Of a DNA stretch of 18,202 nucleotides, positions 6,900 to 17,669 are shown one piece after another (within the stretch, counting starts at the first letter, position 1; each line of letters opens with the position of its first letter). The notes beneath the pieces were generated by a model that was given only the letters and a program-made list of their open reading frames with translations, was not told the origin of the DNA and did no database searches. This DNA comes from a virus. Taxonomy: Duplodnaviria; Heunggongvirae; Uroviricota; Caudoviricetes. The DNA lies in the IMG/VR virus record IMGVR_UViG_2617270976_000013, positions 1-18,202 of that record; one strand, 5' to 3'. The position numbers were made by a program, and so were the translations under genes.

Positions 6900-6990
6900 T
6901 TGTTGCGATGAACTTATTTAAAACTACAGTTGTTTTATCGTCAACAACAAAAGTTGTTTTATTGGTTGTTTTAGATATAACTGGTTGTAT
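6900..6990 (-). promoter_or_regulatory. putative leftward early promoter and operator array (pL/OL-like)
   Basis: Minus strand reads TTGACG, 17 nt, TTAAAT; overlapping repeats of TAAAACAAC/GTTGTTTT in direct and inverted orientation (plus strand agttgttttatcgtcaacaacaaaagttgttttattggttgtttta). Confidence 0.4.
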
Positions 6991-7085
6991 TTAGGATGGA
7001 TTTATTTTGTGACTTGAATCGCATAGCGATAACTGAAGCGAGGTTATGGTGGTTTTTTTAACGGTGTGTGTGATGAGGGGGGGGG

Positions 7086-7113
7086 CAAAAGAAAACCCGG
7101 CACGGTGACCGGG
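7086..7113 (-). terminator. putative intrinsic terminator downstream of the repressor gene (minus strand)
   Basis: GC stem cccgg (7096-7100) / ccggg (7109-7113) with an 8-nt loop; on the minus strand followed by TTTTCTTTT and then a C9 tract (plus-strand G9 at 7077-7085). Confidence 0.4.
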
Positions 7114-7234
7114 ATTCTTACGCCGTTAGGTAAAGATATTATTGCGGTGGCTTAATATTACTACCTAGAGCAAAGATAGGAATTAGTTCTTTACTGAATG
7201 AGCACAATGCCCAGTTGATAATTTTTAATTGGTA

Positions 7235-7924
7235 CTACCCATGCTTCCTATATGTCTGCGGCATGCTCCCAATAACCTTACCGAAGATGAACACCCGGTT
7301 CATCTCGTCTTTCTCGATCGGGTCCCACGGTGAGTAGCTTTTGTTATCAGAGATGACCAGCAGCTTATCCTTCATCATTTGCAGGCGCTTTACATGGGCT
7401 GTGTCGTCGTACAGAAACGCATAGATACCATCACCGTCGAAAGATTTAACTGTGATATCAACGAACAGCAGATCACCTGGTTCGATCGTTCCTGACATGC
7501 TGTCACCACGCACGTTAATGATGCGGATATTTTCCGCCTTCCTACCATCGAACATGTGACGAGCATCGTCAAACGAGTACTCAACCGAGCGTAGAACTTC
7601 TACAAACTCACGGTTGATGACTCCCGGCCCAGCACTGACTTCTATATCAAGAACGTCAATCTTGAAGTATTTGGAATGGCTGACAGTTGATTGTATTGGT
7701 TGCACTGTACTGTCTGACATATTTCCAACGCCAGAAGATAACCATTCTGCGCGCACACCCAAAGCGTTCGCGATCTCCACGATTTTAGTTGTTTGATTAG
7801 CTTTCCCTGTTTCGATTTTCTGAATAGCAGCCTGGCTAACCCCGACCAAATCCCCAAGCGCCTTTTGTGTAAGGCCTCGCGCTAATCTGGCTTCTTTAAG
7901 TCTTTCTGAGAGTGTTGTTTTCAT
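7235..7924 (-). CDS. cI: CI-like prophage repressor, HTH plus S24 (LexA-type) peptidase domain
   Basis: 229-aa product MKTTLSERLKEARLARGLTQKALGDLVGVSQAAIQKIETGK... with C-terminal GDSM and VKRL (Ser/Lys dyad context). Start chosen at ATG 7924 (not 7990) to leave a 105-bp operator region; no SD, consistent with a leaderless mRNA. Confidence 0.9.
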   Translation of the reverse strand: MKTTLSERLKEARLARGLTQKALGDLVGVSQAAIQKIETGKANQTTKIVEIANALGVRAEWLSSGVGNMSDSTVQPIQSTVSHSKYFKIDVLDIEVSAGPGVINREFVEVLRSVEYSFDDARHMFDGRKAENIRIINVRGDSMSGTIEPGDLLFVDITVKSFDGDGIYAFLYDDTAHVKRLQMMKDKLLVISDNKSYSPWDPIEKDEMNRVFIFGKVIGSMPQTYRKHG

Positions 7925-8028
7925 AGTCCAAATGTACAACCAAGGTTTTATTCCATCAAACGAAAATGGTTGTTGACTAAAAACAACCATGGTTTTAATC
8001 TTGATTCAAATTAACCACGGAGGTTGTT
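7925..8028. promoter_or_regulatory. divergent promoter/operator region (OR, pR, pRM-like)
   Basis: Three operator-like sites sharing AACCA/TGGTT half-sites (caaccaaggtttt, aaaatggttgttg, aaaacaaccatggtttt with perfect palindrome aaccatggtt). Rightward TTGACT (7973-7978) then TTTAAT; leftward TTGATG, 17 nt, TACATT ending about 7 nt before the repressor ATG. Confidence 0.55.
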
Positions 8029-8259
8029 ATGAACCCAGCTATCAAAACAGCGATCAATATCGTTGGTTCACAAAAGAAACTGGGCGCTGCTTGCGAAGTT
8101 TCACAGCAGGCCGTCTATAAGTGGCTTCACAACAAAGCAAAGGTATCCCCTGAACATGTCGGCAGCATTGTTACGGCTACTGGTGGAGTAGTGAAGGCAT
8201 ACCAGATTCGCCCGGATCTTCCGAAGTTGTTTCCACACACCGAAAAGAACGCAGCTTAA
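8029..8259 (+). CDS. cro: Cro-like HTH regulator (YdaS-like)
   Basis: 76-aa product MNPAIKTAINIVGSQKKLGAACEVSQQAVYKWLHNKAKVSPEH...; SD GGAGG 5 nt upstream; divergent from the repressor across the operator region. Confidence 0.85.
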   Translation: MNPAIKTAINIVGSQKKLGAACEVSQQAVYKWLHNKAKVSPEHVGSIVTATGGVVKAYQIRPDLPKLFPHTEKNAA

Positions 8260-8271
8260 ATTTCCATTTCA

Positions 8272-8284
8272 CGCTCTTTAACAA
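8272..8284 (+). promoter_or_regulatory. boxA-like element (nutR-equivalent position)
   Basis: CGCTCTTTAACAA, 12 nt after the cro stop, closely matching the boxA consensus (CGCTCTTTA / rrn TGCTCTTTAACAA); no convincing boxB hairpin follows. Confidence 0.5.
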
Positions 8285-8328
8285 TAAGCAATCAACTTAA
8301 CAGTCAATTCAAACTAAAGGAGTCAATT

Positions 8329-8868
8329 ATGCAACCACTTACATACCAACAGACTAGCGGATTTAGCCCGACTGCGGTGATAAATCGTTCTCAAACAAAA
8401 CAGGTGCCAGGCCACGAAAAGATCCGTGATGCCGTCCGCGCCTGGTCGGCTGTAGATAATCAGGATGTCGTTGCCACACTCATTGTGAATGAGTATCGGG
8501 AGCAGGGCGGCGGCACCATCGATTTCCCTGATGATGTCAGCCGTGCACGCCAGAAGCTGTTCCGCTTCCTCGATAACAAATTCGATTCTGAAAAATACCG
8601 AAATAACGTGCGTGAACTGACCCCGGCAATTCTGGCGGTACTACCGCTGGAATATCGCGGTTACCTGGTTGAGCAGGATAGCTTCATGGCTAGGTTGGCT
8701 GAAATGGAAAAGGAACTCAGTGAGGCAAAACAGGCTGTCATTCTCAACGCACCACGCCACCAGAAACTGAAGGAAATTAGTGAAGGTATTGTGTCGATGT
8801 TTCGTGTGGACCCAGATCTGGCTGGTCCATTGATGGCGATGGTTACTACCATGCTGGGGGCGATATGA
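8329..8868 (+). CDS. CII-position regulator, YdaT-family
   Basis: 179-aa product; segment ARQKLFRFLDNKFDSEKYRNNVRELTPAILAVLP resembles Rac YdaT ARNTQKIFRWVEKDTPDAVEKMQALLPAIEKSMP; strong SD AAGGAG; follows cro as cII does in lambda. Confidence 0.7.
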   Translation: MQPLTYQQTSGFSPTAVINRSQTKQVPGHEKIRDAVRAWSAVDNQDVVATLIVNEYREQGGGTIDFPDDVSRARQKLFRFLDNKFDSEKYRNNVRELTPAILAVLPLEYRGYLVEQDSFMARLAEMEKELSEAKQAVILNAPRHQKLKEISEGIVSMFRVDPDLAGPLMAMVTTMLGAI

Positions 8869-8954: not shown

Positions 8955-9560
8955 ATGGCAAACACTGCTGAGATATTCAATTTTCCAGTGCCGGATGTGG
9001 CACAAAAGGAGCCGCGCGTGGCAGATCTCGATGATGGTTATACGCGCATTGCAAATGAGTTGCTGGAAGCTGTGATGCTGGCCGGATTAACACAGCACCA
9101 GCTTCTGGTCTTCCTGGCTGTCATGCGCAAAACATATGGCTTTAATAAAAAACTGGATTGGGTGAGCAACGAGCAACTTTCCGAGTTGACCGGGATATTG
9201 CCGCACAAGTGTTCTGCTGCAAAAAGTGTTCTGGTAAAGCGTGGGATTTTTATTCAGAGCGGGCGGAATATCGGCATTAATAATGTGGTCAGTGAATGGT
9301 CAACATTACCCGAATCAGGTAAGAAAAATAAAGTTTACCTGAAAGAGGTAAATTTACCTGAATCAGGTAAGAAAAGTTTACCCAAATCAGGTAAAGACGT
9401 TTACCCGAATCAGGTAAACACAAAAGACAAACTAACAAAAGACAATATAAAACCTTTTTCGTCCGAGAATTTTGGCGAATCCTCTGACCAGCCAGAAAAC
9501 GATCTTCCTGTGGTGAAACCGGATGCTGCAATTCAGAGCGGCAGCAAGTGGGGGATCTGA
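8955..9560 (+). CDS. O: replication initiator, lambda O-like (N-terminal origin-binding domain)
   Basis: 201-aa product; VADLDDGYTRIANELLEA...LAVMRKTYGFNKK matches lambda O (VADLDDGYARLSNMLLEA...LRKTYGWNK); SD GGGAGG upstream of ATG 8955; contains iterons. Shorter than lambda O. Confidence 0.85.
   Translation: MANTAEIFNFPVPDVAQKEPRVADLDDGYTRIANELLEAVMLAGLTQHQLLVFLAVMRKTYGFNKKLDWVSNEQLSELTGILPHKCSAAKSVLVKRGIFIQSGRNIGINNVVSEWSTLPESGKKNKVYLKEVNLPESGKKSLPKSGKDVYPNQVNTKDKLTKDNIKPFSSENFGESSDQPENDLPVVKPDAAIQSGSKWGI
9306..9418. repeat. origin iterons (ori) inside the O gene
   Basis: Four to five copies of about 18 bp TTTACCYRAATCAGGTAA (starts near 9306, 9333 degenerate, 9353, 9377, 9400), each internally palindromic (ACCTGA-a-TCAGGT), followed by an AT-rich stretch (9418-9462). 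Confidence 0.7.
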
Positions 9561-9609
9561 ATGGAGCGTTAATGATGCAGCGGATATCATCAGGTGCCTA
9601 GTACGGGTG

Positions 9610-9861
9610 ATGGAGATCATCAAGCAGGATAGCCAGCAGAAAGAAGGTAATCAGGCATTAATGTTGAAACAGTACTTTGTTAATCTGCTAATAATGGAAC
9701 TGTACGAGGAAGTTCATAACGGTGATGCGGCTGATTCTGTTTTTAAAAGTACGGAACCTACACAAGTACTTGATAACTTATGGAGCAAATGGCAGGAGGC
9801 TATAGCTATTTTTGATATTTGGAATTACCCAGTTGCGACTGAGGAAGACTTGGCAGACTAA
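9610..9861 (+). CDS. hypothetical protein (84 aa) in the position normally occupied by a helicase loader
   Basis: ORF from ATG 9610 (MEIIKQDSQQKEGNQALMLKQYFVNLLIMELYEE...); no similarity to lambda P or DnaC recognised; start uncertain. Confidence 0.4.
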   Translation: MEIIKQDSQQKEGNQALMLKQYFVNLLIMELYEEVHNGDAADSVFKSTEPTQVLDNLWSKWQEAIAIFDIWNYPVATEEDLAD

Positions 9862-10055
9862 TTTTCAGCACATTTGATTTCCAATAATCAACCAGCCATA
9901 ATCATGCCATTGGAGCCTGAACAACTCCGGTGACTTCTGCGCTAAACGGGGACGTTTATGCGCACATACAATCCAACCTATCTTCTCCATTCACAGATGC
10001 AGAAATGCACCTGCGTTTTTTTGCATCCAACGTTTGACCTCTGCGGAGGTGAAGC

Positions 10056-12117: not shown

Positions 12118-13200
12118 TTAGAACTGGTAAACCATACCTACAGCAACGATATCATCGGTAGCAACGCCAGATGCTTTCGTGAAATCGCTCTTATCAATCA
12201 GGTTGATTTTGTAATCAACAAAAGTGGACATATTTTTGTTGAAGTAATAGGTTGCACCTACATCAATATATTCAACCAGGTCCTGATCACCCCACGCACC
12301 CAAGTCTTTTCCTTTAGATTGCAGGTAAGCAACGGACGGACGCAGACCGAAGTCGAACTGATATTGTGCAACTACTTCGAAGTTTTGTGCTTTGTTGGCA
12401 ATATGGTTATTACCAAAAACAGTCATGTTCTGGGTTTCAGAATAGGTGGTAGCCAGATAGATGTTGTTCGCATCATATTTCAGACCAGCTGCCCATACTT
12501 CAGCATTTTGACCAGATGCATTCAGGCTGTTGTTACCGTAGATAACCTGATTATTAGTGCGGTCAGATTTAGCATAGGTTGCACCTACACCGAATCCTTC
12601 ATACTCATAAGTAGTGGAGAAACCGAAACCATCACCATTAGCTTCAGTTACGTCAGTGCGGTCATTTTTACCCTGATACTGAGCAGCAAAGTTCAGACCA
12701 TCAACCAGACCAAAGAAGTCATTGTTACGATAAGTTGCAACACCTGTGGTGCGACCAGTCATGAATACATCTGTTTGGGTCCAGGTATCGCCACCGAATT
12801 CTGGCAGAACGTCGGTCCATGCACCAATATCGTATGCTACACCGTAGTTACGGCCATAATCGATGGAGCCGTAGTCACCGAATTTCAGGCCAGCGAAGGC
12901 AAGACGGGTTTTATCTTTGGAGGAACCTTGAGATTCAGCGCGGTTGCCTTTGAATTCATATTCCCACTGACCGAAACCAGTCAGTTGATCGTTGATTTGG
13001 GTTTCACCTTTGAAGCCAAGACGGGCATAAGTAGTATCACCATCATCTGCATCATTAGAGGAGAAGTAGTGCTTAGCATTAACTTTCCCGTACAGATCCA
13101 GCTTGTTACTGTCTTTATTATAAATTTCAGCTGCCTGAGCAGACATCGCCATCAGTACTGATGCAGTTACAGCAGAAATTGCCACTGTTAATTTTTTCAT
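12118..13200 (-). CDS. OmpC/NmpC-family outer-membrane porin (prophage moron)
   Basis: 360-aa product with signal peptide [23 protein letters not shown], Gly/Tyr/Asn-rich beta-barrel composition and C-terminal F (..VGMVYQF); lies between Q and the lysis genes in opposite orientation, as nmpC does in DLP12. Confidence 0.9.
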
Positions 13201-13626
13201 CGTGAGCCCTTTTTTTGAACTATTATTAAAAAATGATGTCACTGCGCGATAAATATTCATCTAATCAATGTGATTATTTCAAGATGTAAGTTTTGGTTTC
13301 TCATTTGATTTGTGAAGTAGATCTCTATTTTTATCTGAACTTTTTCTATCGAATCCTATTCATGGCTCTTGGCTGAATAAAAATAAATCTATTAGCCAAT
13401 TTATATTAATGGCTGTTATTTATAAGTGCTCTATAATTTGAAGGTTCAATTTAAATCGGCTAAAAATAACGCTGGAAATTATTTGTTGGTTATTTGTTGA
13501 GATTTGCTTATGTATTTGTAGTGGTGTTTTCAATACTCGGTAGCATTCTCGCAAATATCATTTAGTGGTTTACGTACGTAAAAAATTGGTTATGCTGTTA
13601 AGAGTGGTTACTTCGTCACACAGCTT

Positions 13627-15808: not shown

Positions 15809-15964
15809 ATGATTGATGACGGCGTGGTGTCCCGTATTGATCTGGATATCCGCCGCACCGGGATTAATGAACTGGGTAACAGTATCACTCTCTGGCGTCG
15901 TGACGGACCGGTAATGATTTCTTTTGATGATCTGTGGAGTGCGATAACGCATGGCGGACAGTGA
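15809..15964 (+). pseudogene. truncated ORF overlapping the J start, possibly the 3' remnant of an upstream baseplate gene
   Basis: Open frame from the stop at 15737 to 15964 encoding ...MIDDGVVSRIDLDIRRTGINELGNSITLWRRDGPVMISFDDLWSAITHGGQ; overlaps J by 14 nt as upstream baseplate genes often do; no SD or N-terminal domain. Confidence 0.3.
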
Positions 15965-16871
15965 ATTTCAGCGCCCGACGCTGGCAGAAAATATCAGTAT
16001 GCTCCGTAACGATTTATTCGCCAGGCTGGACGTCAGCGACACGCTCCGGCGCATGGATGAAGACGTGCGGGCAAAGGTGTATGCGGCGGCGCTGCATACG
16101 GTTTACGGTTACATCGATTATCTGGCAATGAACATGCTGCCTGACCTGTGCGATGAGTCCTGGCTGGCGCGACATGCTGCGATGAAACGGTGTCCGCGCA
16201 AGGGGGCCACGGCTGCCAGCGGGTATATGCGCTGGGAAGGTGTCAGCGATGGCCTGAAGGTGACTGCCGGGAGTGTTATTCAGCGCGATGACCTGGTTCA
16301 GTACACGGCAACTGCCGATGCAACCAGCTCCGGTGGTGTCCTGCGCGTGCCGATCGCCTGCTCAAGTGCAGGCGCGGTCGGTAACGCTGACGACGGTACG
16401 TCATTAATCCTGGTCACGCCGGTGAATGGTCTGCCGTCTTCCGGCGTGGCAGACACTCTGACAGGTGGATTTGATACTGAAGAGCTGGAAACGTGGCGCG
16501 CCCGCGTCATTGAGCGGTATTACTGGACGCCTCAGGGCGGGGCTGACGGGGACTATGTTGTCTGGGCTAAAGAAGTGCCAGGCATTACCCGTGCATGGAC
16601 ATACCGCCACTGGATGGGAACGGGGACTGTCGGTGTGATGATTGCCAGCAGTGACCTGATTAATCCCATTCCGGAAGAATCAACGGAAACGGCGGCAAGA
16701 CAACACATTGAGCCACTGGCCCCGGTGGCAGGCTCTGATTTGTATGTATTCAGGCCGGTGGCGCATAAAGTGGATTTTCATATCCGCGTGACGCCGGACA
16801 CACTGGAAATACGGGCTGCCATCACCGCCGAGTTGCGTTCGTTCCTGCTGCGTGATGGTTATCCGGAGTAA
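15951..16871 (+). CDS. baseplate assembly protein J-like (P2 gpJ family)
   Basis: 306-aa product MADSEFQRPTLAENISMLRNDLFARLDVSDTLRRMDEDVRAKVYAAALHTVYGYIDYLAMNMLPDL... recognised as the P2 J / e14 JayE baseplate family. Confidence 0.8.
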   Translation: MADSEFQRPTLAENISMLRNDLFARLDVSDTLRRMDEDVRAKVYAAALHTVYGYIDYLAMNMLPDLCDESWLARHAAMKRCPRKGATAASGYMRWEGVSDGLKVTAGSVIQRDDLVQYTATADATSSGGVLRVPIACSSAGAVGNADDGTSLILVTPVNGLPSSGVADTLTGGFDTEELETWRARVIERYYWTPQGGADGDYVVWAKEVPGITRAWTYRHWMGTGTVGVMIASSDLINPIPEESTETAARQHIEPLAPVAGSDLYVFRPVAHKVDFHIRVTPDTLEIRAAITAELRSFLLRDGYPE

Positions 16872-17095
16872 TCCATGCATCGTATAGATACGAAAGACAG
16901 CTATTAATTAATCAGGCCAACGAATACATGAACAGTAAACAATGGCCCGGTAAAACCGCTATTGGTCGTCTGAAAGGCGAGGAACTGGCGCAATATAATT
17001 CGTGGCTGGATTATCTGGACGCACTGGAGCTGGTTGATACCTCCAGTGTGCCAGATATTGAATGGCCTACGCCTCCGGCAGTTCAGGCCAGATGA
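16872..17095 (+). pseudogene. tail fibre assembly protein remnant (C-terminal part only)
   Basis: Frame open from the J stop encodes ...ERQLLINQANEYMNSKQWPGKTAIGRLKGEELAQYNSWLDYLDALELVDTSSVPDIEWPTPPAVQAR, the conserved C-terminal region of Tfa chaperones, with no N-terminal domain; converges on and overlaps the complete tfa on the other strand. Confidence 0.5.
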
Positions 17096-17669
17096 CATCA
17101 GGCGCGGTGCTGGTATCAGTTGCCGTCACCGCGTCAATGTAATCCAGCACAGCGTTAAGGCTGGTTGTTTCTGCCTGCGTCAGTTTACGTCCGGCCTGCA
17201 ATTTCAGCTGAATCAGACTGATTGAAGCCATTGCAGTATCAATCAGTGACTGGCGCTGTGCTTCTGCTGCATCTACTGCGGCGCTATGCTGTGCTTCGGT
17301 ATCCGTCACCCATTTCTCACCATCCCATTTATCGTATGGCGTTAACGGGGCGATAGTGGTTGTATTATCAGGGTAATCACCCGGAGCTGTGATTTCTTTT
17401 GACTCTCCCGTTTTGGTGCTATAGACGATTTCACCGCGATGGTCTGGCACATATTCCCATGAGTTAAAATTTGCAGAACGACAGATAGCATAACCCGCCT
17501 TATGTGTGCCAGGGGCATCTAAACAGGAATATGCAGGAATACCGACACCAATGGCAAGATATTCAGTTGATGCTGAAATATATTCCTGCGTCTCACTATC
17601 ATAGTTATAAACGGTAATATCCCCCGACTTTGTAGCAATAAGCTCACTATTTAATATTGCTTTATCCAT
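17067..17669 (-). CDS. tfa: tail fibre assembly protein (Tfa chaperone)
   Basis: 200-aa product ending ...QSLIDTAMASISLIQLKLQAGRKLTQAETTSLNAVLDYIDAVTATDTSTAPDVIWPELPEA, the characteristic Tfa C-terminus; start overlaps the stop of the upstream tail-fibre ORF (TAATG). Confidence 0.85.
   Translation of the reverse strand: MDKAILNSELIATKSGDITVYNYDSETQEYISASTEYLAIGVGIPAYSCLDAPGTHKAGYAICRSANFNSWEYVPDHRGEIVYSTKTGESKEITAPGDYPDNTTTIAPLTPYDKWDGEKWVTDTEAQHSAAVDAAEAQRQSLIDTAMASISLIQLKLQAGRKLTQAETTSLNAVLDYIDAVTATDTSTAPDVIWPELPEA

Follow-up and report, generated by a model that had tools for sequence, protein, structure and literature searches.

A lambda-like immunity switch with a predicted leaderless repressor mRNA in a lambdoid prophage

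How is a prophage repressor expressed when its start codon follows almost directly on a promoter and has no Shine-Dalgarno (SD) sequence? This question is raised by the short spacer (7925-8028) between a leftward repressor gene and a rightward cro-like gene, with ATGs at 7924 and 8029, in the 18,202-nt stretch of viral DNA analysed here (the window). The original prediction, made from the DNA letters, had described this spacer as a lambda-like divergent switch with a probably leaderless repressor mRNA, and had given its length as 105 bp; we counted 104 bp. Our analysis indicates that the locus is very probably the immunity switch of a lambdoid prophage, lambda-like in its working, in which the first base transcribed from PRM is the A of the repressor AUG or a base next to it, and the resulting transcript is leaderless.

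Setting and operators of the immunity region

The window is a lambdoid prophage. Its genes, taken from the left, are a host aldehyde-dehydrogenase-family gene, an integrase gene and leftward genes for a YqaJ-type exonuclease, a RecT-family (Bet-like) protein and Gam; the immunity region comes next, followed by an O-like replication gene, a porin gene and ORFs of the size of lysis genes. The immunity region has a CI/Cro-type layout, with a repressor gene and a cro-like gene diverging from a short spacer that holds operators and promoters (Table 1). This region was found in 1521 of 5426 complete E. coli genomes (about 28%), 1520 of these at an identity of at least 95%, and in six sequenced Escherichia phages, including Turner, PhiR34_1 and IdasGreatGrand; Turner and PhiR34_1 showed 99.9% identity to it. 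A literature search that used protein accessions, phage names and operator or peptide strings turned up no paper on this immunity type, and no transcription start site data, transcript 5' end, footprint or reporter assay for it. Outside the immunity region, the similarity to PhiR34_1 ended at 9555, within the O-like replication gene, which encodes 231 aa in the window and 339 aa in PhiR34_1. To the right of this gene are the porin gene on the minus strand (12118-13260), a gene for a baseplate-J protein (15951-16871) and one for a tail-fibre assembly protein (17067-17669), and the prophage as a whole seems to be rearranged or defective.

Table 1. Positions of operators, promoters and genes in and around the immunity region
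Feature	Position	Strand	Sequence	Description
OL1	6920-6933			Exact consensus match
OL2	6944-6957			Exact consensus match; 24 bp from OL1
PL-like promoter	6916-6944	-	TTGACG (6944-6939), 17 nt, TTAAAT (6921-6916)	
Intrinsic terminator 3' of repressor gene	7086-7113	-	CCCGGTCACCGTGCCGGG (7113-7096), then TTTTCTTTT	T tract formed by the second part
Repressor gene	7235-7924	-		229 aa; N-terminal HTH and C-terminal LexA/S24 self-cleavage domain; ATG at 7924-7922
Discriminator gap, PRM -10 to ATG	7925-7930	-		Six nt; predicted +1 is the A of the ATG, 7924
PRM -10	7936-7931	-	TACATT	17-nt spacer from -35
PRM -35	7959-7954	-	TTGATG	Directly abuts OR2
OR3	7936-7949		ACAACCAAGGTTTT	Exact consensus match; inside PRM spacer, touching PRM -10
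OR2	7960-7973		ACGAAAATGGTTGT	One half-site perfect, the other weak; centred at -42.5 from predicted PRM start
OR1	7983-7996		ACAACCATGGTTTT	Contains the palindrome AACCATGGTT; in PR spacer, touching PR -10
PR	7973-8001	+	TTGACT (7973-7978), 17 nt, TAATCT (7996-8001)	
Possible fourth operator	8014-8027		ACCACGGAGGTTGT	One mismatch to consensus; overlaps cro SD; 31 bp from OR1
cro-like gene	8029-8259	+		76 aa, YdaS family; GGAGG SD at 8019-8023
YdaT-family gene	8329-8868	+		cII position; Pfam YdaT_toxin 8.5e-30

The spacer contains three 14-bp operators with the consensus A[A/C]AAC-N4-GTT[G/T]T (AMAAC-N4-GTTKT), at centre-to-centre distances of 24 bp (OR3 to OR2) and 23 bp (OR2 to OR1). Exact matches to this consensus occurred four times in the 18.2-kb window (at 6920, 6944, 7936 and 7983), in two clusters that flank the repressor gene. 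When up to three mismatches to ACAACCATGGTTGT were allowed, five matches were found against 1.06 expected, three of them within 61 bp at the 24/23-bp spacing. The operator repeats thus exceed chance. The original prediction had recognised three operator-like sites built on AACCA/TGGTT, one of them a perfect palindrome. The palindrome is present as claimed, at 7985-7994, and the number of three holds for the 14-bp operators; the AACCA/TGGTT motif is also present, but it occurs four times in the interval, the fourth at 8013-8017, and the 14-mer describes the repeat better. Two other features of the region were discarded: a terminator-like hit at 7966-7990 is not a terminator and consists of the facing half-sites of OR2 and OR1, and an inverted repeat that spans both start codons (7916-7926 and 8039-8049) was put down to chance, its cro side not being conserved.

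The second cluster (6916-6957) lies beyond the repressor gene and its terminator, about 1 kb away and outside the interval covered by the original prediction. It holds OL1, OL2 and a PL-like promoter whose layout copies that of PR, one operator abutting the -35 hexamer and the other lying within the spacer. Judged by this layout, the cluster is the putative OL/PL equivalent, so that the locus has the arrangement of a lambdoid switch, with three tandem operators over PR and PRM (OR1-OR3, 7936-7996) and a second set at PL (OL1-OL2, 6920-6957). Further half-sites (ACAACCA, minus strand) were seen beside OL2 at 6956-6969 and 6975-6988; the latter has its centre 31 bp from OL2, as far as the candidate fourth site at 8014-8027 is from OR1. 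Between the terminator and OL there is also a non-coding run of nine G (7077-7085; C9 on the repressor strand), directly after the terminator T tract, and a search with its exact flanks matched the window alone among the loci fetched.

Neither PR nor PRM was reported by a consensus scan of 7100-8400 at a threshold of at least 9/12; both score 8/12, a common value for a PRM that is weak and depends on an activator. Under a looser rule, 7880-8120 yielded one intergenic candidate promoter per strand; the remaining hits were PR shifted by one base and a leftward 7/12 match (7938-7911) with its -10 inside the repressor gene. The leftward promoter of the original prediction (TTGATG, 17 nt, TACATT) is present. 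Its -10 had been placed about 7 nt before the ATG; six nucleotides (7930-7925) intervene, and the A of the ATG is the seventh base.

Relatives were collected by scanning species-representative genomes with the repressor N-terminal domain and by a pattern scan of viral contigs, which gave 57 distinct spacer versions, most of them closely related, so that counts overstate independent events. The same operator type was found in Kosakonia, Klebsiella, Enterobacter, Providencia and Symbiopectobacterium. Across the 57 variants, OR1 and OR3 varied in their central 4 bp but not in the outer 5+5 bp. In the PRM -10, little or no variation was seen at the T, the A and the final TT, one relative having TAGATT, and the PR -10 kept the pattern TA.T.T. 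OR2 and parts of both -35 hexamers (for PRM, 7956-7959) were fixed by the search pattern, and their invariance is not independent evidence. From 3 kb upstream to 3.5 kb downstream of OR2, the exact motif was confined in the relatives to OR and to a pair of sites 24 bp apart; this OL-type pair lay 0.9-3.1 kb beyond the repressor start, a distance that varied with inserted DNA. Such confinement fits operators rather than chance repeats.

The 5' end of the repressor transcript

The distance between the PRM -10 (TAnnnT) and the repressor ATG was 6 nt in 41 and 7 nt in 16 of the 57 variants, and the ATG itself was invariant (57/57). The gap in between occurred in 20 different sequences, with a column entropy of 0.6-1.6 bits, and ranked among the most variable non-coding stretches of the alignment. 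A fixed distance combined with a free sequence is as expected for a promoter discriminator with the A of the ATG as +1. From this geometry and conservation we infer that PRM starts at or next to the A of the AUG; in the variants with a 7-nt gap, transcription could start one base before it. With a start at the AUG, the maintenance transcript would have no 5' leader and no SD.

The translation signals are consistent with this reading. In the window, the 20 nt upstream of the repressor ATG gave an anti-SD duplex of -3.0 kcal/mol, compared to -10.2 kcal/mol for cro, and the means over the variants were -2.9 and -10.0 kcal/mol, respectively. These values confirm the earlier claim that the repressor ATG lacks an SD. 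In the predicted repressor mRNA, the first 33 nt were unpaired, and the 60-nt 5' end had a minimum free energy of -2.5 kcal/mol, weaker than 189 of 200 shuffled sequences. The locus thus combines a -10 placed for a start at or near the A of the ATG with an AUG start codon lacking an SD, as in a leaderless mRNA.

The cI mRNA of lambda is a known leaderless repressor mRNA, and the original prediction had called the present arrangement the same as lambda pRM/cI. Operator geometry, the series of -10, 6 nt and ATG, and the domains all agree with that claim. Lambda has TAGATA-17-TAGATT followed by TAACGT and ATG, and the window has TACATT followed by 6 nt and ATG. Counted from the A of the repressor ATG, the operator centres lie at +18.5, +42.5 and +65.5 in the window and at +19, +42 and +66 in lambda, a match within 0.5 bp. 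In the annotation of phage 434, by contrast, pRM transcription begins 18 nt before the cI ATG and a ribosome-binding site (RBS) is marked, and cI is not leaderless. A leaderless start can therefore not be predicted from homology alone and, since 434 is leadered and lambda leaderless, the layout of the window is lambda-type.

Short distances were also seen among more distant repressor homologues with different operators, in which a -10-like hexamer stands 6-9 nt before the ATG; in those with repeats around CAATAGC or GCGTATTG the hexamer is TAAATT or TATAAA and the distance 7-9 nt (loci L010, L012-L018, L020-L024, L026, L027, L030, L031 and L033, upstream of position 1501). Given these distances, short or absent leaders seem general in the repressor family. 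Leaderless mRNAs have been described for other prophage regulators. For paaR2 of CP-933P, 5' RACE and N-terminal sequencing showed a leaderless transcript (PMC8630535). In E. coli K-12, differential RNA-seq identified dicA (Qin), racR (Rac) and ymfK (e14) as leaderless, and these three prophage regulators account for three of the five leaderless mRNAs from that data set (PMC4681348). Their mRNAs start within a few nucleotides of the start codon (PMC4681348), as predicted for the window, but they belong to different prophages with different operators.

Start codon, establishment promoter and a possible fourth operator

The repressor gave Pfam matches to HTH_3 (5e-13) and Peptidase_S24 (1e-18), and the motifs VSAGPG, RGDSMSG and HVKRL were read in its translation. 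Domains and predicted motifs together give the composition of a lambdoid repressor, with an N-terminal HTH and an S24 domain bearing a putative cleavage site and Ser/Lys dyad. Its DNA-binding domain is closest to the N-terminal domain of the 434 repressor (E 4.5e-9), and residue 5 of the 229-aa form aligns onto residue 2 of the 434 repressor, which places the two N-termini within 3 residues of each other. The C-terminal half of the gene (7200-7687) is about 95% identical to cI of the lambdoid phages Lambda_4C10, 4A7, D2, 1W and others, and the N-terminal halves of those cI genes match at the protein level only (about 53% in D2 and 1W). By this comparison, a mosaic junction appears to lie between the DNA-binding and S24 domains of the repressor.

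Three other accounts of the locus were weighed. The frame of the repressor gene is open upstream to an ATG at 7990, both in the window and in 29 of the 57 variants, and a true start there would give a 251-aa protein and a conventional mRNA leader; PhiR34_1 and some RefSeq records are annotated in this way (PV340559.1, NZ_CP028749.1). The original prediction had named this case against itself, and it fails on several counts. Stop codons interrupt the frame at most 66 nt upstream of the 7924-type ATG in 26 of the 57 variants, as in strain KCJ3K291, where the PRM -10 is TAGATT, as in lambda, and supplies an in-frame TAG; in several relatives the upstream ATG is replaced by ATA. The 7990 ATG also sits inside OR1, between the -35 and -10 of PR and upstream of the PRM start, and no SD precedes it. 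The 22 extra residues have no counterpart in the 434 repressor, and most RefSeq/PGAP records use the short form. We therefore regard a start at 7990 as extremely improbable. These comparisons show that the 229-aa form is the correct one and that the 251-aa records are mis-annotated. Alternatively, the repressor might be made mainly from a leadered transcript of a PRE type, activated by the YdaT-family protein, that begins in or beyond cro and runs antisense through it, the hexamers near the ATG being incidental. An establishment promoter exists in lambda, and in CP-933P a PRE under the control of YdaT lies where ydaS ends (PMC9986795, PMC8630535); in the window, a YdaT-family gene occupies the cII position. 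The spacer between cro and this gene (8260-8328) holds the direct repeat AGTCAATT twice, about 20 bp apart, and a half-match to a YdaT-type inverted repeat (8278-8295), and is a candidate place for a PRE-like promoter or a YdaT site. However, such a promoter would supplement PRM, not substitute for it: the repressor shuts PR and with it the PR-transcribed YdaT-family gene, so that maintenance needs another promoter. Moreover, it would leave the fixed 6-7 nt between -10 and ATG, with its free gap sequence, unexplained, and a long transcript would have no SD before the repressor ATG. A search of the window for the CP-933P YdaT operator, TTGATT-N6-AATCAA, gave no convincing PRE sequence; the CP-933P site is not transferable because the two YdaT proteins are distant (E 0.002). 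On balance, this account seems improbable. Elsewhere in the window, TTGATTTCCAATAATCAA at 9874-9891, just after the ORF 9523-9861, agrees at 12 of 12 positions with the operator consensus of CP-933P YdaT, for which the chance expectation in 18.2 kb is about 0.001.

The remaining account concerns the number of sites and leaves the leaderless conclusion as it is. The function of 8014-8027 is uncertain; if this site over the cro RBS joined in repression, the switch would have four sites and a logic nearer to the four-repeat region of CP-933P than to lambda. CP-933P indeed has four equally spaced repeats (PMC8630535). Conservation extends beyond the SD to positions 8014, 8015, 8017 and 8018, in contrast to the variable 8002-8013. 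The site carries one mismatch in the window, and a perfect consensus was found only in Providencia-type relatives. In most variants, however, the mismatch falls on the third base of the half-site, which is invariant in OR1 and OR3 and is A in every OL site listed, and the GGAGGTTGT part is the cro RBS, which also stands at lambda cro, where it is not an operator. A four-site switch of this kind is possible but rather unlikely. A fuller version, in which 8014-8027 is mirrored by the half-site at 6975-6988, 434-type recognition is combined with lambda-type leaderless expression, and cro is repressed downstream of the PR start, we consider unlikely. The reading that we prefer remains a three-operator, lambda-like switch with a leaderless repressor mRNA.

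Comparison with known switches and proposed mechanism

The window shares with lambda the divergent repressor and cro genes, three operators 23-24 bp apart, a weak PRM, OL/PL beyond the repressor gene and a repressor of the self-cleaving S24 type. Its operators measure 14 bp and have another sequence, whereas those of lambda measure 17 bp. Unlike lambda, it also has a 434-type HTH_3 domain, a YdaS-family Cro and a YdaT-family gene in the cII position, and it lacks rexAB between the repressor and OL. The cro-like protein matched YdaS_toxin (4e-17) and, below the gathering cutoff, P22_Cro (8e-5). Phage 434, the closest solved relative of the DNA-binding domain, likewise has a three-site OR overlapping PR and PRM, and 14-bp operators with ACAA...TTGT-like outer bases. 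Nevertheless, identity with imm434 was rejected: the N-terminal domains are homologous, but the recognition-helix residues, the operator consensus and the 434 OR sequence differ, and Gln29/Gln33 of the 434 recognition helix, as read from the alignment, correspond to Ala/Lys in the window repressor.

CP-933P of E. coli O157:H7 has a YdaS-family Cro, a YdaT as CII equivalent, and OR and OL operator sets (PMC8630535, PMC9986795), and shares with the window the YdaS/YdaT families and a lambdoid switch. Its operators (GTTTAGTAA repeats) and its repressor PaaR2 are unrelated to those of the window; PaaR2 is a protein of about 15 kDa with a downstream toxin-antitoxin pair, and the window repressor has 229 aa. 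We therefore also rejected a CP-933P-type PaaR2/YdaS/YdaT module with paaA2-parE2, as the window has a 229-aa S24 repressor with a terminator directly after it and only the YdaS and YdaT families in common.

By analogy with lambda and 434, repressor dimers would occupy OR1 and OR2 and thereby turn PR off. From OR2, which has its centre at -42.5 and adjoins the weak -35, the bound dimer would stimulate PRM; an OR2 position of this type is where the lambda and 434 repressors activate PRM. At high repressor levels, OR3 would be filled and PRM turned off, giving negative autoregulation, and Cro would use the same sites in reverse order. Cooperation between OL and OR may also take place. RecA-stimulated self-cleavage of the repressor at the Ala-Gly site would lead to prophage induction. 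The leaderless transcript would be translated from its 5'-terminal AUG, like lambda cI mRNA.

The design of this switch is textbook and leaderless prophage repressors have been documented before; the immunity type was previously uncharacterised. The results leave the understanding of phage switches unchanged, and their value is practical. The operator consensus, the promoters and the correct repressor start can be used for experiments on lysogens, induction and superinfection immunity, and the 251-aa records can be corrected to 229 aa in annotation. The conserved distance between -10 and ATG, together with the free sequence of the gap, forms a clean signature that can be searched for systematically, and the locus is a further comparative example of the association, already known, of prophage repressors with leaderless mRNAs.
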